A DNA stretch of 64,000 nucleotides from Carcharhinus amblyrhynchos (Eukaryota). Of the stretch, positions 1 through 49,169 are shown piece after piece. Each line of letters opens with the position of its first letter. Within the stretch, counting starts at the first letter, position 1. Made by a program: the position numbers and the translations under genes. The stretch covers positions 1,054,001 to 1,118,000 of the forward strand of contig OZ336903.1 of NCBI GenBank assembly GCA_965287045.1. The letters are read 5' to 3'. A model generated the notes under the pieces. It was not told the origin of the DNA and ran no database searches. It worked only from the letters and a program-made list of their open reading frames with translations.

Positions 1-1782
1 GTATGGCGATACATTTCAAAGTTGTGGTTCCACTAGCGACTCCTAACCTGTCCTTCCTGCTGTCAGCTAAACGGTTCCACTGTTTAACGGTGGTTTTCAA
101 CTACAAATACGATATTTTGTAATTAATTCCACTCGTAACACTGACATTTCTTTTTTACTTTTTGTGTCTCATAGATTAAGATGAAATATGATTAACAGAT
201 CGAATACTCAGTCAAGGAGAGACACATTTGCCGCCTTGTGCTAACGGCGTTTTGTAATCTTTAAATAGAGCTACATTTTACAGTACCAAAATTCCCATAT
301 CTATTTATCTCTTCCAAATAAAGTTAATATGCCACATTCAGCCAAGGCCTTTGCATTTTTGTTGTTGTTATGCTATCTCTTGTGAAGTCAGTGTCCCTGG
401 CAATGGCAGCATTTATTATCTGTGCCCAGATGTCTTCAGAAATTGATCTCTGAGCTTTTTTTTTTGCTGCCTGGCTGCAGTGAATGATGTACTGGTGCAG
501 GCACAGTGAGATTAGGGATTTAGCGCTCACGAGATGAAGCAACCCCTATATCGTCCGAACGCAGCATATTGACCAGCTTAGAAGGGAATGCGCAATTCAG
601 GGTATTGCCTCAGGCCTGTCCTTCTACTGAAAGGTGGTAGAAGTCGCCGGTTTGGAATGAACTGCCGAATGAGTCTTGGCCATTTGTTGTTGTGTATCAT
701 CTACACGGTACACAAATGATTCAGGTGATGGCTGTTTTTTTTTAGCAAATGAGGCTGCTGACCAGCTCCTTCTATTTCATTGTTTTTGGTGTCATTAGTG
801 ATCTGTTGCAGGAAGAAAAGGGGGCACAGGTTTAAGGTGAGAGGGGAAATTTAAAGTGAGATGTGTGGGAAAAGCTCAGAAAGTAGTGCATGCCTGCAAG
901 GCGCTGTCAGAGGAGGTGATGGAAGCAGGCACATGAGAAACATTTTAAGAGGCATCTGGATGAGAACAAGAATAAAGAGGAAATAGAAGGATAGGGACGG
1001 AAAGAACACCACTTTTTTTTTGCTTAAATGGACATCATGATGGACAGGGGCTTGAAGGACCGAAGTGTCTGTTTCTCTGCTGCACATTTCTTTATTCTGT
1101 GTTTTTGAAATGGGTCACTGATTCAGTGGGAGAATTACTGAACACTGAAAAGTGGAGCCAGAGATAGGAAGACGGAATGGGTGAAGAGGGACAGAGATTC
1201 CAGTTGGACCATAGAAATTGTCAACATTTTGAGTAAATATTGAAATGATATCCCACAATTCTGGCAATGAGTACAAATTAAGTTGAAGTTCTGTGATATT
1301 GTTTGCGATGAGTTAATAAGGATAGCTGGGATATGTCTGCATTGGAAATAAATGACGCACTCTCCGTATTGTGGACGGTGGTGCAGAGATATTCGAGTAA
1401 CTTTATCATTGTTACTCTGTGGATCAAGGTATAAATTTCAGCAATCCAACCAGAGACAGGAATCGCTGCCCTGTTGATTTTATTATGCAAACTAGACGCT
1501 AAAGCGGATTTGGAGATTTGACTGACACAAAATATCCCTGTTTGAGAATACGGTAAAATGTGTTTAAAAATGTATTCAAAAAATGGAATGAGGCTGTGAT
1601 ATTCTTAGGCCATAATATCACGGGTGTTGGAATTTGAATAAAACTTTTTAACAGCAAATGCTTGGAAATCGTATAGTGAAGGAATAACACAGATCCTCGG
1701 TGTTGACTTTGTGATGTTTGGTTTTGACAGTTTCATTCATCTCGTGTTCCAGCAGAGACTAATTTTCAAAATTTCATTTCAG

Positions 1783-1815
1783 GCAGACCAGGGAACAGCC
1801 AGGCTGATCCATCAG
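1783..1815 (+). CDS. Gene A 33-bp micro-exon (end of signal peptide, (C)[10 protein letters not shown])
   Basis: tttcag|GCAGACC...ATCAG|gtaatc; identical to gene B 42136-42168. Confidence 0.75.
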
Positions 1816-4800
1816 GTAATCGTCCTCCAAGTTCATATCTGACATTTCACTGCACTAATCCATCCAACTGAATGATAAATCCCGGAGACTACTTCAGTGT
1901 CTTTGTATTCAATGATTCGGTTCAATGTCTGCCTGTCAGTTGCGAAGGAAAATGTTCTTGCGATGTTTTCACGTAAATGTTTAAGTTCTGCTCCCTAATT
2001 TAGAAATTAGATCCCCGAGGAGCAGGGTGAGAGGCAAAGATTTCCCACTGCCGTATGGAAATAAATGTTTACTTCTCTAGTTACCAGCCAGCGCTGAAAT
2101 GCAGTGCAATATGAAGCCCTTCCACCCCCGGTGTATTAGGGTTCCGCCGTAAATTCGCCGCATCTCATAGCCCCGGGAAGGGCTGGAGACGACCTGACTG
2201 TCCAATTCAGCCGGTTGCAGCAGGGTGAACCACCGGGTTCGACACTGGTGGCAGATATCGAATCCATGCTAGGATCAGGATTCCACTATATTGGTCCCGG
2301 CTGTATGGTGGACCGCGGACCATAACAGCCCTGAGTTGTACAGATTGAATCAAGTAAGCACCCATCGACACTCCTGCCTGACACAGCCGAATGATGTTTC
2401 CAACTTCCAACTGATTTGCGGATGTTTCCCACTGTCAATCCATATTCCCGCTTCCACTTGCAATGTCTCAGGGGGAGGTACTGGAAGCGGATACGACAGT
2501 GACGTTTAAGGGGCGTCTTGATAAGTAAATAAACAGGGTGGGAATAGAGGAATATGGTCCCCAGAGCGGTAGGGGTTTTTAGTTAAGTCGGGCAGTGAGG
2601 TCGGTACAGGCGAGGAGGGCGGAAGGGCCTGTTCCTGCGCTGTCAATGTCTTTGTTCGTTCTTTATTTCATGTTATCCCTGTGTTTATTGAGATTGTAGA
2701 CACACTCCTTACTTGGCTTGATTCCTATCTGACCTGCTGCATCAGCTGGCCAATAACTGTTGGTTTATTTCTGTACTTTACAGAGGCAGTGAAGCTGAGA
2801 CTGGCGAATGGGCAGAGTCGGTGCGCTGGAAGAGTGGAGATTCACTACAGGGGACAGTGGGGCACTGTGCTTGATCTTGGCTGGGACCAGCGGGACGCCG
2901 ATGTTGTGTGTGGGGAGCTGGGCTGCGGGACCGCGCTCTCTGCACCAGGCGAGGCTCACTTTGGGGAAGGATCCGGACCCATTGTGACGGCAGGTGTTGA
3001 GTGCGAAGGGACCGAGACCGCCCTGCGGGAATGTCCCTCAGAACCATGGAGTGATTCTCAGTACTTGCACTTGCCGCACTCCTATGATGCCGGTGTGATT
3101 TGCTCAGGTAAAAAATAAATCCATCATCTACAGCCTGCTTTCCGGGAAAGGGTGGATTCAGTTAGATAGGGGTCATGGGTAGAGAGGTGGACTGGTGGTG
3201 TTAAGATGGCGGCGCGGGCTCGTTGGGCCGAAGGGCCTGTTTCCCGGGCTGATTTTGTTCTTTGTTCTAAGTATTCTGAGACTGTACACTGTCGTAAAGA
3301 GACTGGTGAATAATTTTAATATTCTATAAATAGATTTGTTGTTACATTAATAACAGCGAATGGGAATGGGTGAAGAGGATCAGAGATTCCAGTTGGACCA
3401 TAGAAATTGTGAACATTTTGAGTAAATATTGAAATGTTATCCCACAATCCTGGCAATGAGAACAACGTAAGTGGAAGTTGTGCGATATTGTTTGTGAAGA
3501 GTTAATAAGGATACCTGAGGATTGTTTGCATTGGAAATTGTGACGTTTAGTGCTGAGTGCGAAGGGACCGAGACCGCCCTGCGGGAATGTCGCTCTGCTC
3601 CATGGGTTCAAGATTTCTACTCTCTCCTTCCGCACTCCAATGATGCCGGGGTGATTTGCTCAGGTAAAAAAAAAGTCCATCATCTGCAGCCTGCTCTCCG
3701 GGAAAGGGCGGATAAAGTATTCTGAGACTGTACACAGTCGTAAATAGAGTGGCGATTAACTTTAATATTCTGAAAATAGAGTGTTGTTACATTAACACCA
3801 GGATTTAAGTTTATAATAAAGTAACAACAATGAGAGTGATTAACAATTACCACAACCGTGCACAGGCCCGCTGTGCCCTTGAGCTGAGCGCTTGCTGTTA
3901 GCTATGTTCAGGAGAGGAGTTGTTCACTCCTGGTTCCTCACTGTTCAGTTCCGATCATCATTCAACAAATAATGAATCATTCCAGGGCCACACAGAGCAA
4001 ATCCTGGACAACAATCAGGCTTCTGCTGAGCAACCGTTTATCTTCATCTATCCGCAGCGTTTGGTTTATTCTGAAATTTTAACTTAAATTCAAATCGTCC
4101 GATTCTAAATGTTTTTTTTTCCTTCAAAGTCCAGAAATTGTACCCACAAATGTGCTGCCCATTGTGGTTCGAACCCCAGAGATACGGCCGGAGGCATCCC
4201 GACCCCCAACCCATCGAAATCTCCACCGCCACCCCTCCCCCAATGCCTCATCCGACACAACCACACGCCTGGAGACATAGGCGGATCTGTCAGCAACAAC
4301 GGGGGTGTGGGGGTGGGGGGGGGGGGTGCGGCGGACAGACCTGGGAGGAGACCGAGAAAGCGTCCCGGGCGTACTAATCTGTCCCAATTTTGCCTGTGCA
4401 GAGTCAAAATTTCAGGCATGCTTTGATGGGCTGGCTGTGAACGGAATTACATTTAAGGGGAGTCCGGATCATTCGGCACTCCGTGAGAATTGGCGGCTGT
4501 CTCTGAATTAAATCCGGGTGTCTCGGTCCATGTGTTTGACATTTACTGACTATTGATTGCGGAGGCCATAGAGCGCTTATCCAGTCACTGCGGCTACTTT
4601 CAGAGCAGCAATCAGTGGGCAGATTGAAGGTGTTCCAAGAGCGGAGTGAGGATGAGAAGGGTCTGGAGGAGAGTCTTGCGCACTGGAAACTTCCCTCTAT
4701 TCTTCCCTCGCCACTAATTCCGCCACAGCTGCTGAATTGTTCCAACATTATCTGATTTTGTGTGAGAGGGGACTGGCTGGATATCCCCTGTCTCTCCAGG

Positions 4801-7800
4801 CGTGTTGTTTTAATAACTGTCATGTAAATCCTCTTCCCAAAATGTTTGAACCTACTTGGAAACTTATCTCCCTCTCACACCCTAAATCTGATGAACACCA
4901 GCTGTTCCTGTATGATTTCCACTCGTGTTATATTTTTTTTCGGACGGAGTTTACCTTTAGAGTCTGTCAGGGAGAGAAATCAGAAATGTTATTGGTGGAG
5001 TGTTCCGTTGTATCTGAATAAATTGTGCTGGAGCAATTAGTTCAGGAGGTTGTATTTTAAACAAATGTGCGGCAGTCCATACTTTCTCCAGAATAAAATG
5101 AAGGGAGATGAGTTGTTTTAATATTTAAAGCTGCTGCAGCTTCAGGCAGATTTCACAAAGAGTAAACTGATAGAAGGAGATGTTGTCTAGTCTCAGTAAC
5201 CAGTAGCCCGGGACACTCTCACTGGACTGTTTTCCAGAACAGGAGATTCTTTCAAGGTTGCATTTCCCTGAATTGTTTATCGCATTCCAGATATGGACTG
5301 AGCAAAGTTACTGAAACTTGAAGCAGAAACTCTCCCCCTTCACATTCTCACTGCCCAAATGGAAATGCTAAAATCCCTGTGGATACTTGATTACGTTTTC
5401 CATCTGGCCTTAATGTATTAGCCACCTGTGCACATGGACTCTCAATAAGAACTCGAATGTTGTTTGCTCATCACCATTTAAACATTCGGAAATCCATCGT
5501 TTTATTTCTGGTTGAAATCGTTTGAGAACGTTCATTCTCAACACGTTTCAGCGCCAACAGAGAAACAAAATCAACTCGATCATTTTGGTGTCTATCAGTT
5601 AGAAAGCCTCTGGGCAAATTAAACCCATTTTCTTTCGATTCATGTTCGCCTGCTGCACATGGGGGTAGTTCCCATCAGCAGGCGCTAGGGGGCGATCATA
5701 CCCAGATTTCTCCAGATAAACCAGCAGTCCGTTCAGTTTATGGGCGGATGGTGAATAATGTTCCAGATGAATCGCTGTAAGACTGAACACGGCTTCTGAA
5801 GAGAATAATAGTGGACACATGTTGAACTGATGAAAGAGATTGAATTATTAAGTTGAACGAACTGCCCCCTTGTTCCAGTAAATGGGCCCGAGTGCACCCA
5901 CAGGAACGATGCCAATGTGATTTTGCATTGAAGCGTCATTTATCACATTAATTCGTTTTCACTTAGTAATTTGGCACTTTTGGGAAATGGATTTCTGTGG
6001 CTGTACAAATATGGAAGTTTTTTTGAATCGCTAAAAAAAGTGTTTCTTTTGACTGCAGTGAGGAAATTAATTAAGTCGGTGTGTTTTTCTGATCTGAAAC
6101 AGGAAACACTGAACCCCGGCTGGTTGGTGGAAATGACAGGTGCTCCGGGCGGGTGGAAGTGCTGCATGGAGAACACTGGGGGACGCTCTGTGATGTTTAC
6201 TTTGGTTTCCAAGATGCCAGTGTGGTCTGTGAGCATCTTCAGTGTGGAGTGGTAGAGAAAATCCTGAGAGGAGCAGCCTTTGGGAAAGGAAATGGGACAA
6301 TATGGAAGGAAAACTACAGATGCCACGGAAGTGAGTCCCGGTTGGGGGAGTGTCCGGTTTCATCAGTGGAAGAGTTTAACTGTTCACATGAAAATGATGC
6401 CAGTGTCATTTGCTCGGGTGAGTCCTCACAATGCAGTCACTCAGAGAACTACAACACTTGGGTGTAGTAAACAAAAAAATCCATTCGACCCGTGAGCCTG
6501 CGCAGAATTATTGGAAATGAACCTCACCCAGTCACAATCCATGAATATCCTCACAGATTTGTATTATTTTTCACTTCACATAATTGTTCAATTCTCGAAA
6601 AAGTTTTGATTGTCCTTCACCCACTATAAACTCACACAATTCATGTTCAAACCTAACCACTTACTACAGCTGATTTCAATTCGGTCACTATTGGTATTTT
6701 GGGAGTTATCTTTAACGTCCCCCGCTCCCTTCCCACATCTTTCCCGCTCTTTGTACCTCCACCAGTGACAGCACTTTCCTCGATACACTTTTTTTTGCAG
6801 AACCCTCGGGATTTTGAAGTCGCCATGGAACCTGGAGGTCAAAACAAAACCCATCCGAATTACATTGAGTAACTCGCCCGAGTCCAGACTAGTTTTATCC
6901 CTTTCTCCTTTCTTTTATATCGATCCTGATATAAGCCTATTTATGACACTGATAAATAAACTTAACACTTACCACATTGCGACATACGGGTGTTCTGTAT
7001 GTGCAAACTCGCTGCTTTGATTAATATATTTCAGAAGTAACTGTAATTCTCGCAATGTCCATTGATGACTATTCCGGGCTTTGGGACATCCTGCGGCTGT
7101 GAAAAAGCTTCGCGGAAAATAGTCGTTGCCTCCTTCCCGCCAGTATGAGTCAATTCCCATTTTCCGGCATCAGGTGACGCTGCCATTTGCCTGTGCACAC
7201 CACCAGCGCGGCATTTGAAAATTGTAATCCTGCCCATCACACCACAGTCAATGTCCTTAACATATCTCAGGTACAACAGATGTTCACAGATTCCCCTAAG
7301 GAAGCCACATTAACAGATCGAATGACTATTCCCTGTCAAAGGCCCAATTTCACACTTGGGTAGACATTACCCTTCCATTTCATTGACGCGAACTTACCAG
7401 TGAAGCCTCGAACGTGGCCTTTCTTTGGAAAACTATCTGTACAACCGTATCCTTCCTACCATTATTAACTTCCCCCTTTGATTTCCCCGAATATAAAACA
7501 TGAGGAAGCTTCTGAAACATGTTTTCTTTTTCCTAAAAAATATCTCGTTGGTGCTCTAAATAGTTAACATCTTAAAAAGTGTCCTTTTGTGTATCAAATT
7601 CTCATTTCAAACAAATTATCGCACTGCCAGAATAACCTCTGTCCCTGCTTTGATGGGTTGCAGCATATCCCAGCATGCCCAGATAAACTTTCACAGAATA
7701 GTTTCCCAATTTGCCGGAAATGAATGTCCAACCTCTAGCACTATCTCCTCAGAACAGAACATAAGAACATAAGAACATAAGAAATAGGAGCAGGAGTAGG

Positions 7801-10800
7801 CCAACTAGCCCTTCGAGCCTGCCCCGCCATTCAATAAGATCATGGCTGATCTGTCGTGGCTCAATTCCACATTCCCGCCCTCTCCCCATAACCCTTAATC
7901 CCCCCTCTTATCAAAAACCCATCAACCCGCGTCTTAAAAATATTTAGCGAGGTAGCCTCCACCACTTCAACGGGCAGAGAATTCCAGAGATTCACCACCC
8001 TTTGAGTGAAGAAGTTCCTCCTCAACTCCGTTCTAAACCGCCCCACCCCCCTTTATCTTGAGGCTGTGCCCCCTAGTCCTACTATCCTTTCTGAGCTGGA
8101 AGAGTCTCTCCACCACTATCCTATCCATCCCATTCATCATCTTATACGTCTCAATGAGATCTCCCCTCATTCTTCTAAACTCTAACGAGTACAAGCCTAA
8201 AATATTCAGCCTCTCCTCATAGCTCAACCCCCTCAACTCCGGCATCAGCCTAGTAAACCTCCTCTGCACTCCCTCCAAGGCCAAAATATCCTTGCGCAAG
8301 TATGGCGCCCAAAACTGCACACAGTACTCCAGCTGCGGCCTCACCAATGCCCTATACAGCCGCAGCAAGACCTCCCTACTTTTATATTCAATCCCCCTCG
8401 CTATGAAGGCCAGCATCCCATTCGCCTTCCTGACCACCTGCTGCACCTGCAAGCTGGGTTTTTGCGACTCATGCACAAGGACCCCGAGGTCCCTCTGCAC
8501 TGTCGCCTGCTGCAGTTTTTCGCCACGTAAGTAATCATCCTTCCTACCATTATTCCTACCAAAGTGGACCACCTCGCACTTGCCAACATTAAATTCCATT
8601 TGCCTTTTCCTGGCCCATTCGCCCAGCCTATCTAGATCCTTCTGTAGACTCTCCCCACCCTCCGCACAATTTGCCGTTCCACCAATCTTGGTATCATCAG
8701 CAAATTTCGACACCCTACACTCGGTTCCCTCCTCCAGATCATCTATATAAATGGTAAATAGCTGAGGCCCCTGCACCGACCCCTGGGGCACTCCACTAGT
8801 CACCAACCGCCAATCCGAATAGCACCCATTGACCCCCACTCTCTGCCTCCTATTTGACAACCAGTCCTCTATCCACGCTAACACCCTACCCCCAACTCCA
8901 TGCCCCCTGATCTTCTGCAATATCCTCTTGTGAGGTACCTTGTCAAACGCCTTCTGAAAATCAAGAAAGACCACATCCACCGGCTCACCTTTATCCACCG
9001 CCCTAGACACATCCTCATAGAACTCCAGTAAATTTGTCAGACACGACTTCCCTTTAACGAAACCGTGCTGCGTCTGCTCTATCAAGCAGTTCCCCTGAAG
9101 ATGCCTTGCTACTTCCTCCTTGATGACGGATTCTAGCATTTTACCTACAACAGACGTTAAACTAACCGGCCTATAATTCCCTGCCTTTTGCCTGGCACCC
9201 TTCTTAAACAACGGCGTAACATTAGCCTTTTTCCAATTTCCCGACACTTCCCCGGAATCCAGCGACGTCTGGAAAATAACCACCAAGACATCCACTCCCA
9301 CCTCCGCCATTTCTTTCAGGACCCTCGGATGTATTCCATCCGGTCCTGGGGACTTGTCCACAATCAGCCCCTCCAGTCTGGCGAGCACCGCCTCTCTAGT
9401 AACAGTAATGTCATCGAGACCCTCCAGTCCTACCACCTTTCCATCGCTAACACCCGGCAAATTATTCACGTCCTCCTCCGTGAAGACAGAAACAAAAAAG
9501 TTATTCAAGACCTCAGCCATATCCCCATCCCCTACCACTAAGTCCCCTTTCTCATCCTCTAAGGGACCAACGTTCACCCTAGCCAGCCTCTTCCTTTTTA
9601 TATATTTATAAAAACTCTTGCTATCCTTTTTTATATTAAGCGCTAGCCCAGCTTCATAGTTTCTCCTACCCTTCTTTATCAACTTCTTTGTCAATCTTTG
9701 TTGACATTTAAACCTCTCCCAACCCTCTTCTCGCCCACTACTCTTAGCTACTCTAAACGCCTCCGCTTTTAATTTAACACTTTCCTTCACCTCCTTCGTT
9801 ATCCACGGCTCAGCTGGATAATCACCCATTATCTCCCATTTAAATCACTCACTAACACGTGGTACTGGATTAATGAGGATGTTTCGACATTTGTCCGCCC
9901 AAATGCCCGTCCATCCCTGCGTTCTGCAAACATATAATGCCGCTTTGCTGAACAATGCATTTATTTTCGATCCAGAGCCGGAGTTCTGGTTGTTCATCCT
10001 CCTGCCTGACTGTGCTGAACCGCCTCTCAGGAATATCCTTCACCTTTTAACAAACAGAAATGTACTGGTGAAAGGTGACCTCAATACGGGTTAATTTGCT
10101 GCACTGGAACCACTGCTCTCAATGTCTTTCTTCGCCTAGATGAAAACTGGTCACTGAGATTGATGAATGGGGGAAGTCGGTGTGATGGGCGAGTGGAGAT
10201 TTACTACAACCACAGCTGGGGCAGAGTGCAGGACAGCCTCTGGGATCTGAATGACGCTAATGTGGCCTGTAGACAGCTGGGCTGCGGCGAAGCGGTAACC
10301 GCCTATAACAATTCAAAGTACGGAGAGGGTGAAGGGCTTGTGTGGGTGAATGATGTCCAGTGTGAAGGAAACGAATCGCATCTCCGGAAGTGCAGCACAT
10401 TCTCATTGAACCCGGATCGCAGTGATAGCATCGGCGTGGGGGTTCTGTGCTCAGGTGAATAAACAGGTCACTTTTTCTTGAAACGTTAAGGGAAAAAGAA
10501 TGTAATCTTGGTCATCTGGAGAATATACTTCAGTTCTTCCTCGGGAACACACAGCTGAGATAGTTCACACTGGGGCTTGGATGCAGGACAGGACACCCTG
10601 GGAAGGAAGCAAAAAAAATAATAGTTTGGAATATGATGACAATAACACTTTAATAAAATTATTTATCAATTTTATCAATCTCCAGGTAACTTTCCTCAGT
10701 GAATTGAGACCAACATACTAAAGAAGCATCGGCAATGGGGACTAATGTGCTAATCGGTGGGGTGGGTTTCAGCAACACAACATTGGGAGAGAGGGTCACG

Positions 10801-13800
10801 TTTCAGAAAGGGGATTGCAATCTTGTGTCCCAGTCAGTAACACACCGACTGTTGAATAAGGATGAAAAAGGGTTTGCTGCATAAATGTCAGATGGGAAGG
10901 AAAGCGATATCTGAGTTCAAGTTAATTTATTATTAACAAATAAGACTAATATTAACACTGAAATGAAGTAACAGTGAAATTCTCCGAGTCGCCACAGTCC
11001 ACCGCCTGCTCGGTTCCATACACATCTTTCAGAATATGGACGTAACCAGAACACTGAGAGAAAACCTATGCAGACACGGAGAGAATGTACAAATTCCATA
11101 GAGACCCTGACCTCAGCCAAAATCGAACGCGGGTCCCTGACGTTGCGTAGCTAACCACTGTGCGGACTGGACAGTGAATGGAAACTGATTATCATGATCT
11201 CCAGGGGTAGTGGGACTGATTATGATGGAGCAGTGAGCAGTAGTGGAGAGCATGGGTATCTCTGAACATGACCATGGTATTTTGAAACTTATTTGTATTG
11301 ACGGAAGAGAGTCCAATGCAAATCAAGTTGCCAAGTCCGCTGGTTCTGTTGGTCAGTAAGGGGGAAGAGGAGAACATGGAAAGGGAGGGGGTGTGTGTGC
11401 GGTTTTGTGTGTGCACTGGTCACTGCTGGTGTGTGGGAATGTGCAGGGTTTGTTTAGAAACGCTTTGATTGTTTTGGAGGGATTGATTTGAAATCTGCAT
11501 TCTTGAAATAACAAGGAACTGATGAACATTTTAGCAGTAAATTGGACTAGTTCGCAAGAAAGGGCACTGTCTGAAAGGTCAACCGACTGTCAGCCGACCT
11601 ATATGTTTGCAGTATTTCTGATTTGTACTGACATATATCTATATATATGTGTGAACTGTTGAAATGTCTGATGAAGGTTCCATGGCAAAATGAAGTAGTG
11701 AAAAGCAAAGAATCAAATGTCTGCCTCAAACATTCTGTGTGGAACAACTAATTAACACAATTTCATAATTGACGGTAAAGCAAAACAGGCAGTAATGAGT
11801 GGGTCAGAACCGAACAGAAAACGGCCGGACTATGTTATTGTTGGAAATATGGATATCTAGGAGATTTGTAAACGCCACATCATTTACTTTACCTCGCAGC
11901 AGAAACTGTTTTCTCTCGAGCGTTTATTAATGTCCCTCTCAACGGCTGTTAAAATACGGGCTTTAAATGATCTGGAAGTGATATCATAGTGTGAATTTAG
12001 CAACGAGGTGAATATGTTTAAGAAATATAATCTGTCTCTTTCATTATTCCATTAGAACACAAACAGTTAAGGCTCTCTGGCGGCGGAAGCCGATGTGCGG
12101 GCCGACTGGAGATTTATCACAATGGGATCTGGGGCTCAGTTTGTGATGATTCCTGGGATCTGACAGACGCAGACGTGGTTTGCAAGCAGCTGGGTTGTGG
12201 ACATGCATTGCGGCTTCCTCTTCCTGCTTCGGCTGGACCTGACTCACAGCCAATTTGGTTGGATGAGCTGGAATGCACCGGGAATGAAACATTTCTCTGG
12301 GAATGTCCCCATGCATTGTGGGGTAAACACGACTGCATTCATAAAGAAGATGTGAAGATCATGTGCTCTGGTAACTGTCCCAACTTCAGTTACATTAGAA
12401 GTTTCATATATAAGATATGTTCCTGATTTACCAAAGGACGGCGCTTACGAATGCTTCTATGTCAAATCCCTCTCTATTATTTATTCTGGACATCATTACC
12501 GTTACATTATTTCTATATCCTACTTTTGACGTGTTGCCTTATGTTACTTTATACCTCATTTCCTGAGATAAATGCGTTTTCCAATTAATATCACTGACTA
12601 TTATGAACACGAGTCTTAAATTTCATCAGTTTATGTGTAAAATGTTCCGGATTACTACATTATTTTGCAAAGATGTTTGACGTAATCAATTATTTCTCGA
12701 GAAACGCGCTGTCACTTTATTCTTCACATCAAAATGCGCCCTATTCCATTGAGCAGTTGGAAAACTAAGTTGTCATTGCCATGTGTACCTTGCCATATAT
12801 TAGCATTGTGACACACGCTTTGCAGTCCTCTTTCGTACTAACTATACAAGCCAGTTTGCTGCCGCAATAGACGTTCTTTTTTTTCACTGTCGAATACAAC
12901 ATCCAGCTGGCTTATGTCACTCTCAAGGGTCAGGGACCACAGAAGCAATCGGTGTGAACCTCACACCGGAAGTTTTGCTACATAAGAAACGAGAAACTTT
13001 GCAAAAGCTCTTTAAATCCACTTTTATCCTGATTGCCTGGTTTCCCAATGCCTTTCGTGAGCTTTCACTGTGGGAACTTGTTGATGCTCTGCTGGTAATC
13101 CACGGACAGAGCTTCTAAAACATTGTCCCTTTCACCATTGCTGCAAGCTTTGCAAATAAATCAATCGGGCCCAGCGTTCAAATGTTTCGATCGAAATTCA
13201 ATGTTGCTTATTTTTGATTATGTTTTTTTTCTGTGACCTTTACGAAATAATTATTACAAACTATGACCTCAACTTAGACAAATCCACAGTGTTAGAATCA
13301 GAGTTGATAATTGCACCACGTGATTATTTATGATTTGATTGACAGAGCACAAAGAGCTGCGTTTGGTGAACGGAAAGCATCGCTGTGAGGGCCGAGTGGA
13401 AGTGCTCTATAATGGGACCTGGGGAACAGTTTGCGCTGTAAACATGGATTCAGATGATGGAGCAGTGATCTGTAAACAGTTAGGTTGTGGCACAATCGTT
13501 TCCATCGACTATTATGCTCGTTCATTCGGAGTAGGATCCGGACCGATTTGGTTGGATGAGATGAAATGCCTTTCACACGAGTCGACACTTTGGCAGTGCC
13601 AGGCAGACCCGTGGGGTCAACACGACTGTGATCATTGGGGCAATGCAGGTGTCGTTTGTTCAGGTAACACAATCAATCATTCTGCTTACAGGTGTGATTT
13701 GAAATATTGATGTAGCTCATGGAGTCAACATATTTGTCTTATCAACAGAGCGAGGGACACCGAAGCAAGAGCAGGAAACTGTGAAAAGCTGCAAGCGAGA

Positions 13801-16800
13801 ATCAGGTGTTTTCCCAACTTTAATAAACCAGCAATCTGATTGTATTCCTCTCTTGTGCTACATCAAATTTAATAATTTATTTATTATCTTTAACAAATTC
13901 AGGACCAAGTTTGCGCTTGGCTGGAGGTAACAACATCTGCTCCGGGAGAGTGGAGATATGGTGTAATAGAACCTGGGGCACGGTGTGTGATGATTCCTGG
14001 GATATGAACGATGCCAGTGTTGTCTGCAGACAGCTGGGCTGTGGCTCTGCTCTCGAGGCCACAGGAGGGGCCGCTTTTGGGCAGGGTAACGGTACTATCT
14101 GGCTGGATGAGGTGATGTGCACCGGAAGTGAATCCTTTCTGTTGGACTGCCCTTCATCATTCGCTCATTCTGACTGTGATCACAAGGAAGATGCCAGTGT
14201 GATTTGTTCCGGTAAGTGTCCCATTGAGCGGTGTGCTTTGGGACTGTGTGACGTTTTTCGCCCATTTTGGCTGAAGTTAATTCATGTTTTCAAATGTCTT
14301 TCTGACCAACAATGCAACTACTTGTCTCCCTTTTACCATATCTTCATCAGGTCCGGAATTATCTCCGACTGTTCTGCCCACACCTTCAGGTATGTCTCAG
14401 TAATAAATATCAATCACTATTACGGCTCATTTTACATTAGGATTCATAGTTGCCACACATTTGTATTGCCTTTTTTGTCAATTTCTACCGACAGTCTGAG
14501 TGTTTGATAATCATGTAAGTGTTTAAAACATTGTGGACACTTTATCTAAGAAAATTCCTTGAATCTTTCATCAAGGATATGAAGATGAAAGCACCTCCAT
14601 CCCTCTGGTGATCTGCATATCACTCGGTGTCCTGTTGATCTGTGAGTTCATCGCCCTTTTGGCAGTAATGCAGAGAAGATCATCAATAAAAGGTAAGGCC
14701 CGAATCATATCCCTGAACCCACGCTGAGTCATGGATGTTGCTTCATCCATCAGAGGGGCTTCTTTGCCGATTTACATAGAATGACTTGAATACATTTCAA
14801 AAAACAAATTAACTGAGTATTGACCAGTAATTTATTTTGAGTCACATGAGAAACAGTAAAATATTACTATAAATGAGGGAGTTATCTACATTCATATTCC
14901 TGCTCAATCCACCAGTGCATGGGATGCGGAACTGGATTTTTTAATGCAACAAATTGATCTCTAATGACCGGCACACTTTTGGAAAAGGAGGTGGCAGCAG
15001 ATATAGTAGATGTAGTTTTGTTATTTCATTGTTTCCGAGATTCTGGAAAGATATCAGTGGATTGGAAACACGCTGGTATGACACTTTCATTCAAGAAAAA
15101 GCAGAGGCATAAAAAAGGCAAACTGTAGACCACTTGTTTTGACCCCTCTGTTGGGAAGTTGTTGCAGTCAGTCATTAAGCAGGAGATAACTGATCAATGG
15201 AAAACAAAGCGGAATTCTCCAGAGTCAGCACGATTTAGTGAAGGACAACTTGTGCCTGACAAACTTGCTCATTTTTTTTGAGAGTTTGAATCGCGAGGTG
15301 GATGCTGGGCATCACGTGGATATGGCACATCTAGATTCTTGATGGCATTGGGCAAGAGTGTTAGATCCCAGAAGCTGGGCACAGAATGTTGGCTTGGATA
15401 GGGGATTAGTTGAATGAGACAAAGCACAGGATAGGGGTAAAAGGCTCCTTCTCTGGATAGAGAGCAAAATGTAATAGCAGGGATGACGCAGTATTCAGTT
15501 TTCAACAGTTTACAACTGATATAACTGACCTGTGATTCGAGCCAGAGTGAAACACGACAAGATTTGCAGATGATCCAAAGATGAGTGGGAAAGCAGGCCC
15601 TCATGAGATTACCGAGTTTACAGATGGATATTGACAGGCGAGGACAAAGGACCAGAATGTCACAGATGGAGATCATGTGGATACATTTGTGGTCAAACAT
15701 GTTCGCAGAGAGAAAAAAATAAAAGGGTAAATGATTATTGAACTGGGAAGCATATTCAAAGTCTGTCAATGCAGAGGCATCTGGGTGCACTTGTGCATGA
15801 ATGACAGAACGTTAATGTACAAATGCAGCATTTCGTAAGAACGACAATTTGAATATTGGCATTTACTGCAAAAGGACAGGAATTTAAATGCAAAGCAAAT
15901 ATCAGTCAGTAGATTGAAGAAAAGAAACAAGTATGTGTCTCAATGAAAGTTGGATAAATCTAAAATGGTGCAGGCAGGTTTGTGGATTTGAGACCAAGAT
16001 AAGATCAGGCATGATCATATAGAACTTTGGAGCGGGCTCAAATGGCTGAATTGCCGAATCTCGCTCCTAATTCCCGTGTTCCAACGCGTTCATTAATTAT
16101 TTAGCTACTGGCATTTTCTTCCCACTTACAATTGGTTGGAATCCAACACTGAGTTATTTTTTTGCCGTGTCAAGTTCCCCATCAGTACGTGATGGTATGA
16201 TTTTCCACAATTATCAATGCCAATACTGCATCCCAGCAAAACTATCCCACTAATATTACAGGATTCATGCCGGTAAATAGCGTCCCGCTCTCTGAGTCAG
16301 ATGCTCCATGTTCAGTCCCAAGATTTAATAGGAACACAGTGTCAGCACTTCCTGTAAAATCATTCCAAGGCAACAAGGCTGTGAGAACGGAAGATATCTC
16401 TGTTCGGCCATGGTTGGTATGGAGTGGCGCCCCTCTGGTAACGGGTTACTGACCTGCTCCATGTTAAAACATGGCCACGGAATCTGATGAATGCCTGCCT
16501 TTTGCACCATAAGTTTTGCACAGATAAACAAAACAACTGCAAGTGTCTAAACTCGCAGCGAGTTTTCTTGATTCCAATCTTATGCGCTGACTTTCACTGG
16601 TCTCTAAATGCCTCAGTGTTCCCTGTGATGGAGGCAGTGCCATCATCACTGGATTCATGATGCAGAGAAACAAAGTAAATTCTGCAGGACCCTGGTACGA
16701 ATCTAACCTCTACAGAGAATGAGATATGAAATCAATACAAATCATGAACAGGAATATAATTCCAGAATGTAAGAATATACTAATTGCCCCGATCTTCCTC

Positions 16801-19800
16801 CAACAGAACCTGCCGCGGGGAGCTGGGATCCAACTTCTGTTATATATCAAGCCATCTATGAAGAAATAGATGATATTCCTCCAGCCAAGCTATACACTCA
16901 GTCTCGTGGTTCAGGTTTGTGTGTGTTTTAACCCAAGCTGGATTGAAAAATACCGCTTCACGTTTATCCCCTTTTAGCCATGGTCAAGAGAAGCATTAAC
17001 CTCACTGTCCTCCTGTAGAAAGGAAACATTTTAAATGTCTTTATTTATCTTCAGAGTATTTGCTTGCTTTATAAATTACCAATACTCATTATTGTTCAAG
17101 AAAATTTTTGCCTTCTGTTTAAAAATAGAAAGCAGAGTAGCTATTGTCTGTTTCCAACGGCTTTGCAACTTGCACATATCAAAGTCTGATCTAAATCATA
17201 ATAAGTGAAATATTTGATTGAATGTGTTAATGCGCTCAATACTTTATTCCTGCTGGCCACATACACAGCGCCTAATTACAGGACAGATTAGTATTTGGGA
17301 AATTTCCTGGAGTGCAATATTCTTTTTTTTTGTAAAATTGGTAATTTTAAAACCTTTTCTGGACCGAATCAAAGATAAAATATATCAAGAGAAAGCAAAA
17401 AATAAACAATTGCAAACGATTAAATATAAGGGCGCATCCCCAATGCAAATGAGGAACGACAACCAGGGAAATGTATTAGACTCAGTGGAGTAGTGAACTG
17501 AGCCCAGCGAGATATGGAATCGGGGAAAGAAAAGTGATGATGTTATTTGTTAAGTTGGCAAAGGAGGACTACTTTATGAGTGAAAAATGGAATGTCAACT
17601 AACATAACGAAATATTCAATCAAAATAAAAGTAAAATGGCCAATTCAGAATTTACTTCAGGTGTTTTCGAAGGATAGATTGTACAGTCACTATAATGAAA
17701 TGAGAGAAATATTAATCAATTGTTTATTTCAGTTTATACCAGAGATAACACTTAAGTTCATGACTTCACATCATGTGAATGGGAATTATATCAACAGTTA
17801 GAAACAAACATGAACTTAAAGCATCAAACTCATTCGGACATTTTCATCCATCCATTTTCAATGAAAGGGAAATTCTAGCAGAAGCAGAATTGCAGCTTTT
17901 CACCGAGTCATTAATAAAGTGTGTAATTCCAAACTGCTGGTGGAGAGCAAATAGTGATGCTGTGATTAGGAAAGTAAAAAAGGAAAATGACAGTAAAATA
18001 GGTAACAGTTTACTGAACATTATTTGGAGAAAAGCCAATCGAATTTCGACCAAAGGAAAAACAGAAAATGTTTACATTAAAGCAAAACGAAGAAGTCAGT
18101 GCACCTTTCATGCTGGGATTCCTCACATAATCAACATAATCAAAACCTCACAAACGTCATCAGAGTAGATGCCTAAACATCAGGAAAATATTTTTCTCGT
18201 GCCCAACGTTCATTAGGGAACTGCCATCTCATACACCAAAGAGCGGGGCAGTGCCCTGTCTGCTCTTTCTTCAGTAAGTTCCAGCATTTCCTGTATCTCA
18301 AACGTTTCCAAATCCTTGTTCCATCCCAGCACTTCAACAGAAAAACGAAAGCTGACGTTTTCATTATTGCTGACGGCACGGTGGCACAGTGGTTAGCAAT
18401 AATGCCTCACAACTCCAGGACCTGGGTTCATTTTCTGGCTTGGATCACAGTCTGTGTATTGTTTGCACCTTCCACCCATGTCTGTGTCACTTTCCTTCAG
18501 ATGTCCCGGTTTCCTCCTAAAGTCCAAAGATGTGCATATTCGGTTGATTGACCATGCTAAATTGCCCCTTAGTGGAGGTCAGAGGGATAAGTTGGGTTCA
18601 TATGTTTGGCTGCGGGGACAGAGCCGAGGTGAAAGTGTTGTCCGTGCAACCTCTATGGGTCAGATGGCCTCCCTCTGCATGGTGGGGGATCTATGAGTCT
18701 GTGGATTTTCAATTCTGATGATGAAAGGCTGGGGAGTAAAACGACAGCGAAAAGTGTTTCTGGATCATAAAAGCCGGTCCACTCGCCCAGATGTAATTGT
18801 TTTTTTTTTAAATAATACATGTTCCTCGTTCACTGATATCTCACACATTATCTCTCCTCAGGGACTGGACATTTCGGAGCCAGCGTAACATGTTTTGTCC
18901 AATAACGTAGTGCTGGTTCTTCACTTTAGACCACTGTAGTCAGTCGGCGGACAGTCCGCCCAAAGTGGTGCCAGGATCAAATGCCAGGATATTTCCACAG
19001 AGGAGATGAAGTTGTTGTGATCTCTACTCTGATTTTCTGAATCACTCTCTGCCATGATAACATCGCAATGGCTCGATAAACAACTTGCCAACTAACCAAT
19101 TATTTTGTGCTTACCAGTTTCTTCAAGCATTGACTCCTTCAATCAGATTGAATATTACACCAGTCACAGTTTGGGAGACACGGATCCTGGATCAGAATAT
19201 CCTGAAGTAGAATCCTCCTCTATTCCGGGTAGGTATAATTTCACATCCTACCATTTCCTTCTGGGCCTTTCCACTCTGTAATATCTAAAATAGCTTCTGA
19301 AATCTCTAAACGTGTACACCATGACGTGCACACCATGAAATGACAGCGCCAAATAGCTCAGATATTGCAGAATGATTTCAGTTGCAGAAACGTTGAATCT
19401 GAAACAATGTTTTACCATCATTCAGAACAATTGGAATGACCGTGAATCTCCCCAGAAGCCTCTCTTGGCTCTGAATTGTGCACTGGTTTGTGGGATCGGT
19501 GGCTCATTAGAACAGTATAAATTTGAACTAAAATTAAAAGAAAACAGCACAATTTCGTCCAATCTTTCCCATGCTCTAATTCACTGGTCTCCACGCCACA
19601 ATAGATCAATATCTGTTCCATAATTGCTGTGGAAATAGACATTTAAGGAGATCATTCTAACTGTCCATTATTACTAATTAATTACAATTCAAATACTTTT
19701 CTCTCTCAGCTCCTGCTTTGACAGACTATGACGACGCTGAGACTGAAAACATTGACTCTCAGAGTGGGCACTTGCTGCTGAACCGGGACCCTGACGGTAT

Positions 19801-22481
19801 CTTCACTTTGACAAGTTCCAGCGGTGATCTCAGCACTCTGGGTGAGATAATTCTTTGATTGTTCCTTTTCTTAAACAGTCGACCGGGATCAGTACACAAT
19901 AAGTTGATAAGAAATTGGAACAGGATTAGGCTGTTCAGCCCCGCGAGCCTGGCCGGCCCCTCAGTGGATCATGACTAATCAGACATTCATCATATTGACT
20001 CTCTTGCCCTTTCCCCGGATCCCTTCATTCCTTTACTGATTAATGGTTTACCAATCACAGCCTTAAATGTGCACAAGGACTCTGCCTCCACAGCTCTCTG
20101 TGGCAACGAGTTCCAAAGATTCACAACATGTTGAGAGAAATAAAAAACACTTCAAATTTCAGTCTCAAGTTGGTTCCCTTTCATCTCATTCTGCGCAGTC
20201 TGGTGCTAGAATCTCTAATGTGTGGGTGGGAGGGGGAGGGGGTGACAACATCCTCTCAGCATTTATCCTGTCGATCCCCATAACAATCCTATGTTTCAAT
20301 GAGATAACCTCTTATTCTACCGAATACCAATGTGCATAGTGGCAGCGATGTTTCTTTTGCCATTATTAATCAGTATTTGTGCAGTGACTATATTTGCCTC
20401 TCGTCGTTGAGTATCCGAGCTCCGATGTTACATCTTACTGTTCTCTCTTTATTATTGTTTCTCGTGTTTCTCTTTCCTATGTCACGCAGTTTGTGTTCCC
20501 ATCAACTTGTCATTCTGTTTTATCCCTTCCAAACCACACTATCAAACACTCACCACAGGACAGCATTTCCCGTCCCAGCCAGGTACAGCGCGTTCACTTT
20601 ATATTGATCTCGCCCCATCACCACCGCCCCCCCTCCCCCTCCCCCTCCCGCCACCCCCACAGCCCCTGAACCTCTCCCAACGTCCCAGGAATCTAAAACC
20701 CGTCACCATAGCACCAGATTCGCAGCCAGGTACTCAGCTGATATTCCGGCAATATTAACTTTGCCCAATAGGAGGAGCTGTTAGTAGCTCTGAAATCACC
20801 AGATTTGAGGTAATAATTTTCAACTGACTTCCTATCCCCATGATGCGCTTTTGCATATAGTTTTTGTGAACTTAATTGATTAATACCGATGCAAATCACG
20901 GCAAGTGGCTCTTCAGCGCCCCCTGCTGAATATCTCCCAACTGCCCTGAGAAATCCTTGACTCGAACACCAGGGGCGCAACATTCCAGCCTGGAGTATCG
21001 TTTCCGGCCAAAGGAATGCCTTCCAATTTCCCTGACATTTGAATCTCATATAAGGATTGCATTTCCACACTTTCTGCTTCTATCTCGTGCAATGGAGCCA
21101 TATATGGTGCTATCAATTGGGATGTTATTCCCATCACATGAGAAGCCGTTACCCCAACAGGATCAAAATCAGCCCACCATCAGTGGCACCTCCGCGCCAG
21201 GCCCTAAATATTGTCCCTGCTCGTCTGCCTAACACTAAGGGGCGATTTAGCATGGCCAATCAACCCAACCTGCACTTCATTGGACCGTGGAGTGAACCGG
21301 AGCACCCTGGGAAACCCACGCAGACACGGAGAGAACATGCAAACTTCACACAGTGAGATGGGGATTGAAAACCCGTGATTGAAAACCCCTGATGCTGTGA
21401 GTCCGCAGTGCTAACCACTGTCTCACCGTGCTGCCCTTATTTTCTTTTCATTAATTTAAAACAATCTGGATTCAGACCGATATTCAGATTGAAACAAATC
21501 TTTAAATTAAATTATACCATTCCTTCAAACTGAGCCCTTGTGACTCCCTGTTTCTCGAAGCTCCTGACAAGGCCACACTGAATAGCCTTCTGTTTTTGGC
21601 CCGAAATTCAAGGCTTCTGAAGCTGCATTAATCCTGATTTCTAATTAACTCGCTCCAGCTGAGAGGCTGGGAAAACCTGTTTCCAATCTGCGATTAAAAT
21701 TCACCCAATCAAAAGTGCAATGTTTAATCGATTGCTAAAATAATGAACAAAGTAGATTGAAATTTAACATTTCCTGGATACTGTGAGGAAATCCCTGTCA
21801 TTTCTGATCTCCTTCATGGAGTCCCATGCTGTGACTGCTTTCTGAATTGATTATCACCTCTGATTATTACTGCAGTCTCCCGCCCTCTTGTGTGGAATAT
21901 ACTCGCTCTGGTGTGCAGCCGATCAAAGAATAATTGGTATTTGGGTTTAGTTCCTGTCGCGACTGAGCAGAATTGTATTAAACAAGGAACCTACTTTAAG
22001 CCCAAAGTTCAGCAAAAATATGTCCAACCCCCACAATGTACAGTAAATCCGTATTAATCCAATCTTATCGGTTCCTTCCACGCCAGCCAAGGATTACAAA
22101 GATTTCTGTGGCACAAGTAGGGACATTGGGCAGTGACCATTCATTTCCGAAGTTTAAACATATACATTATAATGTTAAACCGTATTTTATGAGATTTTCC
22201 AACGGGAATGCCGCAGTGTAGGGATGTGATCTGTCCCGTGTGGTTTCTGCTTTGTGATTTCCTGCAGTATTTTCAGTGGTGCATTACATTGAAAGTATCG
22301 GAGACAATGTGCAGTGTGTGTTTGATAGAAAGAAACTGCCAGTTGAACTGGAATATAATACAAGTACTTGTGTAGTGTTGAACTGATTGTGGAAATGGTT
22401 GTTATTCTCACTCATTTTTCTTTTACCGTTTCAGGTCATAGTCATCACAAAATTCAGGATGTGACGTCCTCAGACATGTGA
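1783..22481 (+). CDS. Gene A: CD163/WC1/SCART-like SRCR type I membrane receptor, 5'-partial (signal-peptide exon upstream of window), 6 intact SRCR domains
   Basis: Exons 1783-1815, 2784-3107, 6103-6417, 10140-10454, 12056-12370, 13346-13663, 13749-13805, 13903-14211, 14351-14389, 14576-14692 (TM), 16807-16914, 19118-19228, 19710-19841, 22435-22481 (TGA). All AG/GT bounded, all phase 1, spliced frame open. Each exon has a counterpart in gene B of identical length, except SRCR D1 (324 vs 333 bp). Confidence 0.88.
2784..3107 (+). CDS. Gene A SRCR D1 (distal domain, 6 Cys, no C2/C7)
   Basis: [27 protein letters not shown]...DAGVICS; tttacag| and |gtaaaa. Confidence 0.93.
3539..3663 (+). pseudogene. 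Orphan 3' fragment of an SRCR D1 exon
   Basis: Encodes [36 protein letters not shown] followed by donor gtaaaa. The 5' two-thirds is replaced by a copy of intron sequence ~1175-1348. No in-frame acceptor. Confidence 0.85.
5716..5930 (+). pseudogene. Decayed SRCR exon in gene A
   Basis: Relic ADGE*CSR* near 5743-5770 and [21 protein letters not shown] at ~5860-5922, comparable to gene B D2 [21 protein letters not shown]. Stops, frameshifts and no donor. Confidence 0.6.
6103..6417 (+). CDS. Gene A SRCR D3
   Basis: [27 protein letters not shown]...[12 protein letters not shown]; 315 bp, aaacag| |gtgagt. Confidence 0.93.
7751..9840 (-). mobile_element. CR1-clade LINE, 5'-truncated, with long reverse transcriptase ORF (8033-9829)
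   Basis: RT motifs [45 protein letters not shown]-terminus continues after a frameshift in a G-run (ORF 7861-8046). 3' tail (TTCTTATG)n at 7751-7785. Absent from the equivalent ~310-bp intron of gene B. Confidence 0.95.
10140..10454 (+). CDS. Gene A SRCR D4 (6 Cys, no C2/C7)
   Basis: [27 protein letters not shown]...GVGVLCS; 315 bp. Confidence 0.93.
10915..11165 (-). mobile_element. tRNA-derived SINE remnant (HE1/V-SINE-like)
   Basis: Reverse complement shows cacagtggttagc...cagggacccgcgttcgatttt...gtctctatggaatttgtacattctctccgtgtctgc. Confidence 0.6.
12056..12370 (+). CDS. Gene A SRCR D5
   Basis: [34 protein letters not shown]...[12 protein letters not shown]; 315 bp. Confidence 0.93.
13346..13663 (+). 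CDS. Gene A SRCR D6
   Basis: [19 protein letters not shown]...[12 protein letters not shown]; 318 bp. Confidence 0.93.
13749..13805 (+). CDS. Gene A linker exon ([19 protein letters not shown])
   Basis: caacag| |gtgttt, 57 bp, phase 1-1; conserved in gene B 33431-33487. Confidence 0.75.
13903..14211 (+). CDS. Gene A SRCR D7 (membrane-proximal, 9 Cys)
   Basis: [31 protein letters not shown]...[12 protein letters not shown]; 309 bp. Confidence 0.93.
14351..14389 (+). CDS. Gene A Pro/Ser/Thr stalk exon ([13 protein letters not shown])
   Basis: catcag| |gtatgt, 39 bp; conserved in gene B. Confidence 0.8.
14576..14692 (+). CDS. Gene A transmembrane exon
   Basis: [38 protein letters not shown]: hydrophobic span followed by basic stop-transfer residues; |gtaagg. 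Confidence 0.88.
14980..16085 (+). mobile_element. Old degraded CR1 LINE, inserted before the duplication
   Basis: Degenerate RT-coding sequence and CR1 3' end; counterpart at ~30720-32240 in the other arm. Confidence 0.75.
16807..16914 (+). CDS. Gene A cytoplasmic exon 1 ([11 protein letters not shown])
   Basis: caacag| |gtttgt, 108 bp. Confidence 0.85.
18375..18700 (+). mobile_element. tRNA-derived SINE (HE1/V-SINE-like)
   Basis: ggcacggtggcacagtggttagc...cctgggttc head, central tttgcac...ccggtttcctcc...gattgaccatgctaaattgcccct, LINE-like tail. Confidence 0.85.
19118..19228 (+). CDS. Gene A cytoplasmic exon 2 (IEYYTS...SEYPEV)
   Basis: ttaccag| |gtaggt, 111 bp. Confidence 0.85.
19710..19841 (+). 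CDS. Gene A cytoplasmic exon 3 (TDYDDAE)
   Basis: ctctcag| |gtgaga, 132 bp. Confidence 0.85.
21230..21436 (-). mobile_element. tRNA-derived SINE (HE1/V-SINE-like)
   Basis: Reverse complement starts gggcagcacggtgagacagtggttagcactgc and includes gattggccatgctaaatcgcccct. Confidence 0.8.
22435..22481 (+). CDS. Gene A terminal coding exon ([15 protein letters not shown])
   Basis: cgtttcag| acceptor; stop position conserved in gene B. Confidence 0.8.
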
Positions 22482-47162: not shown

Positions 47163-49169
47163 CTAACCCAGCATCGGATCATCGAATCATCATAACTTAT
47201 TACACAGGCACAGGCGAGTGAAGAAAATGTATATGGAAAATGTTTGCAAATCATATTCGGCCTGCACTAGATTATTTACATTTTTTGCAATGTTTTGCCA
47301 CTTTTTGCAAAGAACAATTTCCGAGGAACAGTTGAAGGCCGGAGAGACGATGAGTTAAAATTTCCAGGGGAAATGGACTGCTGTGATGTGGAGAAAATGC
47401 ATAAATTGCATGTCAGATCCAATCACTTTCCTCAAGAAATCTGTGAGTGAGTGTTCTCACCGACAAGTCCAATCTAATCGGCTGTTGAAGACTCCTATTG
47501 AGTCCGAATACAGCCTGTATTCACAACCTGATTTTCACGTCTTCACAAGCGAAAAGTGAAGAGATTTCACTCCAGCGGCAACTCAAGCAAGAAGTTCAAA
47601 TCTGTAACATCTGGAATCATTTTTTTTCCCCCGAGTGAAAACAGACCTTTTGCTCCTCGCTCTGAGAACAACCTCCAAAGTTTTTACTGTCTTCTATTTG
47701 CAGAACAATATTCTCGAAATACAGAAAGCCCAATTTGTGAAGATTCTTAATATGTAACATTTCTATCCGGAAATCCTAGATTAAATGCTTCTGTTAAAAG
47801 ACTGTTCATCTCTGTTTGAACTTAATTACTTTTTGAACATACTTTAGAAGCACCATTACATATCTGAGCGATTTTGCTGCCTCCGCCCAGTTTAGAGTGA
47901 CAGAGTTCGGCGGGACTGTGCCGCTCAGAAATATTTCTTATCTGCTGGGCAAATGTGATTTTATTTTCATGATCAACTTGAGAGTCATTTGAGTGAATAT
48001 CTTTACAGAGCCGCGTTTAGAGAGAGGAAGCCCACAGACATATTTGTTCCATACAGGAAGAAATGATTCCTGAGAAGCTGAACAATTGGTATTGAGTTAC
48101 ACTCCGTGTCATCCCGAAGCAGCTCACTGTCTGCGCAGCCTCAGAACACTCGCTGCGCAGTTGCTGAACCGACAGGAAGCACCTGGCCTGGTGGTCAGGT
48201 CTCTGCTCGCATGTTAGTCGCTGCTACACTTTAACATTGACAGATTGCAATTGCACATTGGAACTTGTGACGGGCAGTGCACTGGGACATGTAAAACTTC
48301 AAGTACCTTCATGAATTCACCAGCAGCATGTGACAGAACGGCATCTACAAATAGTTATCAGGGACTCCAGGAATAGTGTGTCGCTGAACGTTATTAAATT
48401 TCACTTGTGTTCAACAAATTTGAAATTATTGGTGTGAGTTTAAACCGATTGTCTGGGCTGTATAAATCAATACACTACACATAGACATTTGACACGCTTA
48501 GACGCGGAGGGCCCACCATTCAGCTCCATATCTATTATCCCTCAGTGCTTCCCCCGTGAACACAGCAGACCGGGTGCACAAGTTCACCGAGAGCTTTGAG
48601 ATGAGAGCAGATACGATCTTGGGATAATGGGTGTCTTTATTTGCAAAATACATTTACAGTTTTTGGTCACTTTCAATGTTGTTCAGTTCCCAAAAATGTA
48701 TCCAATCTGTGAAATGATAGACTGCAAACACGGAGTGATTTCCATGTGAGTCATTTTGTGACGTTGGCATCCCTGACTTCCTTTATCACCGAGAGGGCGG
48801 CTTAAGCACTGTAGTCACTTTGTGATGCGACAAAGTCTTAAGCAGGTACTGGGTGCCATGGAAATTAGAGATTCAGATATTGATATGTGATCCAGTGTGG
48901 AGACTTATTACAGATTGGTTATTTAGGAAATACTGCGGGTATCGAGTCAGTTTATGGAGGTGGAATTTACAAGCATTGGTTGGTCTTTGATATCATTAGC
49001 ATCAATCTTTCCATTTGGCAGCACCTGTCTGTAAAACATATTAACTCCTTCTACCTCCAAATTCTGTGTCTTAACACTGGGTCAGTTCTTGTCAAAACTT
49101 GTCAAGTTACCCTGGTTTTAGCTTATTGATCAATGTCTTTTGTCTTTTGTCATCCAGTGTCTAAAGTCT

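Follow-up and report, generated by a model that had tools for sequence, protein, structure and literature searches.

In a 64-kb stretch of the Carcharhinus amblyrhynchos genome (contig OZ336903.1, positions 1,054,001 to 1,118,000; hereafter the window), we found two inverted paralogs lying tail-to-tail, gene A on the + strand (~1-22,900) and gene B on the - strand (~46,900-26,000), both of which encode SRCR domains with 6-8 cysteines and one exon each, as judged from their translations and Pfam. Gene A carries a tandem duplication of 1174-3356, a unit that comprises its linker exon and the exon of its first SRCR domain (D1), and the counterpart of 1350-2982 is missing from the second copy. The probable explanation, in our assessment, is an old tandem duplication of the D1 module within the gene whose second copy is now dead, representing the birth and death of a domain in an expanded receptor family.

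Anatomy of the duplicated D1 module

The first copy is complete. Its linker exon (1783-1815; 33 nt, phase 1/1) has AG/GT ends and matches both the N-terminal linker of the shark relatives P0271 and P0273 and gene B at 42166-42137, while its D1 exon (2784-3107; Pfam SRCR E = 2.9e-30), also with AG/GT ends, is in frame with all six SRCR exons of the gene. This intact D1 has six cysteines, without C2 and C7, and a variable loop at ~3035-3085. By self-comparison, the intron-1 segment that forms the 5' end of the duplicated unit (1174-1349) recurs at 3363-3538 (90.4% over 177 nt, E = 4e-62), 2981-3157 recurs at 3537-3713 (83.9%, E = 2e-47), and 3269-3356 recurs at 3715-3801 (86.4%, E = 7e-22), with the longest exact match between the copies being 38 nt, in a framework that is also common to gene B. 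Between the post-D1 intron of copy 1 (3108-3356) and the intron-1 segment of copy 2 lies a 6-nt filler (3357-3362) that matches the next 6 nt at 5/6 positions. Copy 2 then passes directly into the last 127 nt of a D1 exon (3537-3663; 42 codons), a remnant with an open frame and an intact GT donor and with no usable acceptor, followed by a post-D1 intron (3664-3801) that continues into unique sequence collinear with gene B. A duplicated D1 module with the second copy disabled by an internal deletion, as stated in the original prediction, was thus borne out by self-comparison and by comparison with gene B.

Both flanks of the duplication are collinear with gene B and single-copy there, including the whole 5' flank (1-2454) and the post-D1 intron of copy 1 (2733-3155 and 3294-3356). 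The downstream intron of copy 2 is collinear with gene B, as had been remarked, but the intron of copy 1 is equally so, and collinearity of both flanks is what any tandem duplication would give, leaving no ground for calling one D1 "new" and the other "old". The stretch missing from copy 2 amounts to 1633 nt in copy-1 coordinates (1350-2982) and ~1395 nt in gene B coordinates (42586 to 41190), a discrepancy that arises because copy 1 has a later repeat insertion. This high-copy insertion (2455-2732) is mostly missing in gene B, as seen from the alignment gap, and shows very high summed depth, with joints from 2465-2470 to 2701-2718 inside it in contigs of relatives. A further 112-nt piece of high-copy repeat (3157-3268; summed depth ~1e6, bin 3088-3261) sits in the copy-1 intron and is found in neither copy 2 nor gene B. 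These two pieces, which flank the intact D1 in gene A only, resemble the 3' ends of a retroposon.

Junctions and ancestry of the two copies

Neither junction joins detectably homologous flanks, as 200-nt local alignments did not exceed those of shuffled sequences (0.90 and 0.58 of 500 shuffles reached the observed score). The second junction has an exact microhomology of 2 nt (AT, 3537-3538); at least as long an overlap occurred in 15.4% of 200,000 randomly drawn junction pairs, and divergence since the event may have erased further microhomology there. The earlier proposal of a ~1.6-kb microhomology-type deletion accordingly keeps its size in copy-1 coordinates but not in those of gene B, and its microhomology shrinks to 2 nt. 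The motif TGACG was rejected as a crossover site: it adjoins the junction, is off register by one base and is preceded by bases that derive from the exon side. Homologous unequal crossover between paralogs yields an in-register chimera, so that it alone cannot explain either junction; both are consistent with end joining or with a replication template switch, whether in a single step or in two. The unequal crossover between paralogs that had been put forward is thus undercut by the lack of flank homology, as well as by the inverted orientation of gene B and by the site patterns described below. The contigs of relatives that we compared came from 4 of 21 runs, with most listed pieces ~90% alike and representing related multi-copy sequence, and no run matched half of the sampled words. 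Contig joints leading from 1158-1190 to 3381-3386 and from 3525 back to 1337 were discounted as paralog contigs switching between similar copies and were not taken as support for the junctions.

A three-way alignment of copy 1, copy 2 and gene B gave 413 gap-free columns, 330 of which were invariant and 10 of which differed in all three. Private sites numbered 25 in copy 1, 19 in copy 2 and 29 in gene B, a star-like pattern (P = 0.35 for equal thirds) that was also seen when only non-coding columns were counted (16/12/17, P = 0.63), with a non-coding distance of 10.2% between the two copies and of 10.6% and 12.0% to gene B. No pull of copy 2 towards gene B was seen over the 413 columns, nor was there a clustered identity tract in this alignment of genomic D1 (longest runs of 3-5 sites, P = 0.33-0.65). 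We polarised the differences with contigs of four related runs, using the best 40 of 486 substitution rows and the best 12 of 35 indel rows. Within the rows listed, copy 1 was the odd one at 1284, 1291 and 1328/1333 and copy 2 at 3449, 3753 and 3760, so these differences are private to one copy. Two exceptions unite the gene-A copies: T is found in both at 3763 and the corresponding site of copy 1, where gene B has A and contigs of all four runs mostly have C, and after the A-run of the donor gene B, P0270 and P0277 (intron read-through) are 3-5 nt longer than both copies. The T at 3763 and the short loss after the A-run are two candidate shared-derived characters of copies 1 and 2 and would weakly favour a duplication within the gene A lineage.

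These patterns also bear on the claim that copy 2 shares diagnostic bases with gene B, which holds at the sites that were named but is selective when set against the private counts of 25, 19 and 29. At the gaggattgt site (1328/1333) copy 1 is the odd one, and the match of copy 2 with gene B is a shared old state. RECRS loses its diagnostic value as well, with RECR occurring in P0270 and P0107 and RECP in P0269, so that the motif varies in the family; the gtgaac and gttatc sites fall outside the 40 of 486 rows and are unpolarised.

From these data we infer a sequence of events that would begin soon after the split of gene A and gene B, when a non-homologous rearrangement in the gene A lineage, through end joining or a replication template switch, would have duplicated the linker exon and D1 in tandem. 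Copy 2 would then have lost its linker exon, the acceptor and the first two thirds of its D1 exon, either by a later deletion at the 2-nt microhomology or as part of the template switch itself. The remnant would have stayed behind as a dead pseudo-exon in an intron, presumably skipped in transcripts and evolving neutrally, with the receptor keeping a single D1 followed by D3-D7; the loop of the remnant would differ from the intact one since the D1 loop changes fast family-wide. The event would be old, or blurred by exchange between paralogs, because the distance between the copies is near that to gene B.

Variable loop, remnant and competing explanations

The remnant covers the most variable loop, as originally predicted. 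Between C6 and the final strand, where the loop lies, the two copies differ at 19/51 nt compared with 29/284 non-coding nt (Fisher P = 6e-6), while the framework of the remnant differs from that of the intact D1 at 1/57 nt. In the loop-equivalent stretch of D3-D7, gene A and gene B differ at 2-4/54 nt, and the first domain is thus the most variable. The single framework change has a probability of P = 0.31 if only the remnant evolved freely and of P = 0.02 if both copies did, so that neutral decay fits if confined to one branch and not if both were free; within the loop pS (0.32) is close to pN (0.39), with only 11 synonymous sites. Tandem D1-type domains also occur in predicted proteins of relatives, with four in P0107 (Rhinoraja), four in P0158 (Narcine) and two in P0175 (Mobula). 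Their tandem copies, compared without P0255, match at 77-83/83 framework and 8-13/14 loop residues in P0107, and at 57-64 of 82-83 framework and 3-9/14 loop residues in P0158; loop divergence therefore needs no foreign origin, because the tandem D1 copies of one and the same predicted protein also show it. More broadly, the domain order is shuffled in P0107, P0158, P0175, P0255 and P0221 and their tandem D1-type domains number 2-4 or more, and such models may be real multi-domain proteins, alternative exons or mis-joined models.

To judge whether the remnant is usable, we scored potential acceptors with a model built on 16/19 reference acceptors. The three AG sites from which a remnant exon would be in frame and free of stops all scored -5.1 to -6.3, compared with 0.9 to 9.5 for the 16 real acceptors. 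The AG at 3518-3519, which would yield such an exon of 144 nt, has no pyrimidine tract and scored -6.3, below the median intronic AG (-4.5), and the higher-scoring AGs upstream of the remnant are out of frame or run into a stop. By acceptor score, the remnant is predicted to be incapable of in-frame splicing and to be a dead pseudo-exon in an intron. It also carries Ala where the intact D1 of gene A, that of gene B and the shark, ray and chimaera D1-type domains examined have Val or Ile. The six loop words of the remnant were found in none of 285 fetched proteins, a weak test, and a 40-residue query spanning the junction and loop returned three candidates and no match, which is likewise weak evidence. 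One D1 remnant lies in the window and none in gene B, with the region upstream of gene A falling outside the window.

Remnants of this kind are not confined to D1. The D2 exon, which is kept in gene B, is lost in gene A except for 65 nt of its 3' end (5857-5921), which align at 81.5% to gene B 38166-38102 and have neither acceptor nor donor. Contig 24 of run X5 spans 5799-6090 across this relic with 7 differences and 2 gaps (~97% identity), and the relic therefore exists outside this assembly. Because D2 left one too, leftover 3' ends of SRCR exons appear to be a recurring outcome in gene A and not special to the variable loop.

An alternative origin for the two copies is that one D1 module came from another paralog or from a deeply diverged allele, by an exchange out of register or a templated insertion, or else that a paralog later overwrote one of the copies through gene conversion, the remnant being dead in any case; this is the originally proposed history minus the donor role. 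The distance between the copies (10.2%), so close to that from gene B, and the loop difference at 19/51 nt would both suit such an import, and donors would abound, given the multi-copy state of the family in relatives (as many as 32 different contigs at a single variant site in one run). Yet there is no surplus of sites joining either copy to gene B, the two candidate shared-derived characters unite the gene-A copies, tandem D1 copies within single genes diverge in the loop as well, and the in-register chimera expected of homologous unequal crossover is unlike both junctions; on balance we regard an import as unlikely, though a serious contender. A mis-join of paralog or haplotype pieces in the assembly is very improbable in our view. 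The family is multi-copy, two N gaps (52485 and 59149) lie in the window, and no bridging contig was found among the best 32 pieces, but no N is near the junctions, both of which are out of register and one of which has filler, whereas mis-joins would usually follow shared sequence. Moreover, an exact inter-copy match of at most 38 nt and the private bases that copy 2 has throughout speak against an artefact, and a contig from another run does span the D2 relic of gene A.

Other explanations concern the use of the remnant. It had been suggested that it could serve as a gene-conversion donor of the variable loop for the intact D1, which could take place in the germ line or in lymphocytes. The layout would suit this role, in that the remnant covers the loop with homology extending ~55 nt on the 5' side and ~70 nt on the 3' side, lies 0.55 kb from the intact loop, and retains an open frame and a framework with almost no change. 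However, there is a single remnant and none in gene B, no clustered identity tract between the copies was seen, the 38-nt exact match sits in framework that gene B shares, a comparable D2 relic exists in gene A, and intact paralogs supply many more loops; in addition, the diversity of bovine WC1 is described as genome-encoded in the accessible portions of PMC3511184 and PMC2681482. No sign of donor use was found in genomic D1 or in the fetched proteins, and we consider this role highly doubtful. Just as little credence is given to the wider idea that the remnant acts as an in-cis loop template similar to chicken pseudo-V segments, with the tandem D1 arrays of relatives as banks of donors or alternative exons. 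Use of the remnant as a cryptic alternative exon adding a short second loop seems to us barely conceivable: its GT donor is intact and the AG at 3518-3519 would open a suitable 144-nt exon, but this AG is the weak site described above, better upstream AGs are out of frame or stopped, and the product would presumably carry unpaired cysteines.

For tandem duplication within gene A followed by loss of the second copy, several observations count on the other side. The copies are nearly as distant from each other as from gene B, and their sister relation consequently rests on two characters, one of which is beside a slippage-prone A-run, with polarisation drawn from only 40 of the 486 variant rows. 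No contig bridging either junction of the D1 duplication was found among the best 32 of 60,831 pieces, although a gap in cover proves nothing. The near-unchanged framework fits a functional period, a recent loss or homogenisation, and the similarity of pS and pN in the loop resembles the outcome of block replacement more than that of plain positive selection. Finally, the relatives with tandem D1 domains are automatic gene models that may be mis-joined.

The receptor family and known systems

Outside the duplicated module, gene A appears to be an intact gene. Its linker exon and six SRCR exons form a continuous frame of 642 codons without a stop, and the predicted mature order is one D1 followed by D3-D7 (6103-6417, 10140-10454, 12056-12370, 13346-13663 and 13903-14211, + strand; assigned by homology and translation). 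Stalk, transmembrane and cytoplasmic exons follow at 14351-19841 (tblastn with P0181 and translations; exon ends approximate), including a hydrophobic exon at ~14576-14693. In both genes, the SRCR exons are followed by a transmembrane exon and then by a tail with YEEI, EYY and DYDD motifs, the YEEI of gene A (~16860) fitting Y-(Q/E)-(D/C/E)-(I/L). A signal exon was not found for gene A within the window; that of gene B is at 46889-46842, with its single D1 exon at 41055-41387 and its D2 exon at 38408-38094 (all - strand). Identity between the two genes is 72-89% in collinear blocks. In the 5' 195 nt of D1 (2786-2980 vs 41385-41191) they differ at only 8 sites (4%), compared with 14-18% in the flanking introns; an 84-nt exact match lies somewhere within the segments compared, and D4 and D7 are similarly close. 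This low difference may reflect selection or exon-limited conversion. According to the inspected translations, cysteines 2 and 7 are absent also from D4 of gene A (10140-10454) and of gene B (36485-36171). Elsewhere in the window, gene A has ~3.4 kb (6425-9854) that is absent from gene B and is probably a mobile element, part of which (7768-8290) is 94% identical to 56349-56879 and 44512-44662, and a ~1.1-kb tandem array of degenerate units lies at 49141-50246, with self-match offsets at multiples of ~43 nt.

The closest named proteins among the matches listed are from sharks, rays and a chimaera and are annotated as DMBT1-like or M130-like, and P0181 has the same seven-domain order as here with an identity of 55-75%. 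D1 searches against long proteins were crowded by multi-domain DMBT1-like proteins (best 120 of 928 and best 150 of 15,164), while a near-length D1 search gave three close D1 exons carrying other loops among the best 17 of 24 candidates. On the strength of its predicted architecture, gene A is a CD163/WC1-like group B SRCR transmembrane receptor of cartilaginous fish. It may belong to a large, multi-copy family with a hypervariable D1 loop in these fish, to which the variant counts per site point (up to 32 different contigs per site in one run of the relatives' contig sets). Literature searches, with subscription papers and supplements outside their scope, returned no paper on a multi-copy CD163/WC1-like family in cartilaginous fish, and the main text of the whale shark genome paper makes no mention of SRCR, CD163 or DMBT1.

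Gene A thus offers a tidy case of how domains are born and die in a family of immune receptors, with D1 duplicated and then killed and D2 deleted. Provided that the remnant has been dead ever since it arose, it would preserve an old loop of gene A and let the rate of change of the working loop be measured, and a donor role, if true, would represent a new diversification route for SRCR receptors. The family itself, with its hypervariable first domain, may matter more than the scar.

In the portions of the literature available to us, CD163c-alpha/SCART and WC1 are multigene transmembrane group B SRCR receptors with one exon per domain and the first domain most variable, in which some domains lack C2 and C7 and the cytoplasmic part has a Y-(Q/E)-(D/C/E)-(I/L) motif (PMC2906472, PMC2681482, PMC3511184). 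As far as these sources go, gene A resembles them in having one exon per SRCR, a variable first domain, a domain without C2/C7 and a YEEI motif; it differs in having 6-7 domains rather than 11, in coming from a cartilaginous fish and in that D1 itself is without C2/C7, and the likeness is one of architecture. The pseudo-V donors of chickens are, like the remnant, non-expressible variable segments lying in cis near a working copy, but chickens have a donor array and templated changes shown in B cells, as described in the accessible part of PMC6008532, whereas gene A has one remnant and no transfer was seen. Judged by title or abstract opening, none of the 16 papers listed concerned SRCR genes with pseudogene donors. 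Copy-number variation of DMBT1 resembles the present case in that SRCR exon units are gained and lost within one gene; according to the available text of PMC4851238, however, DMBT1 alleles vary by whole array units and the domains are working, whereas in gene A neither junction is in register and the surplus copy is dead. The chondrichthyan "DMBT1-like" models P0107, P0158 and P0175 share with gene A the repeated first domain, the divergence of the loop and, in some of them, the missing D2, but their extra copies are predicted to be intact, whereas the second copy in gene A is truncated.

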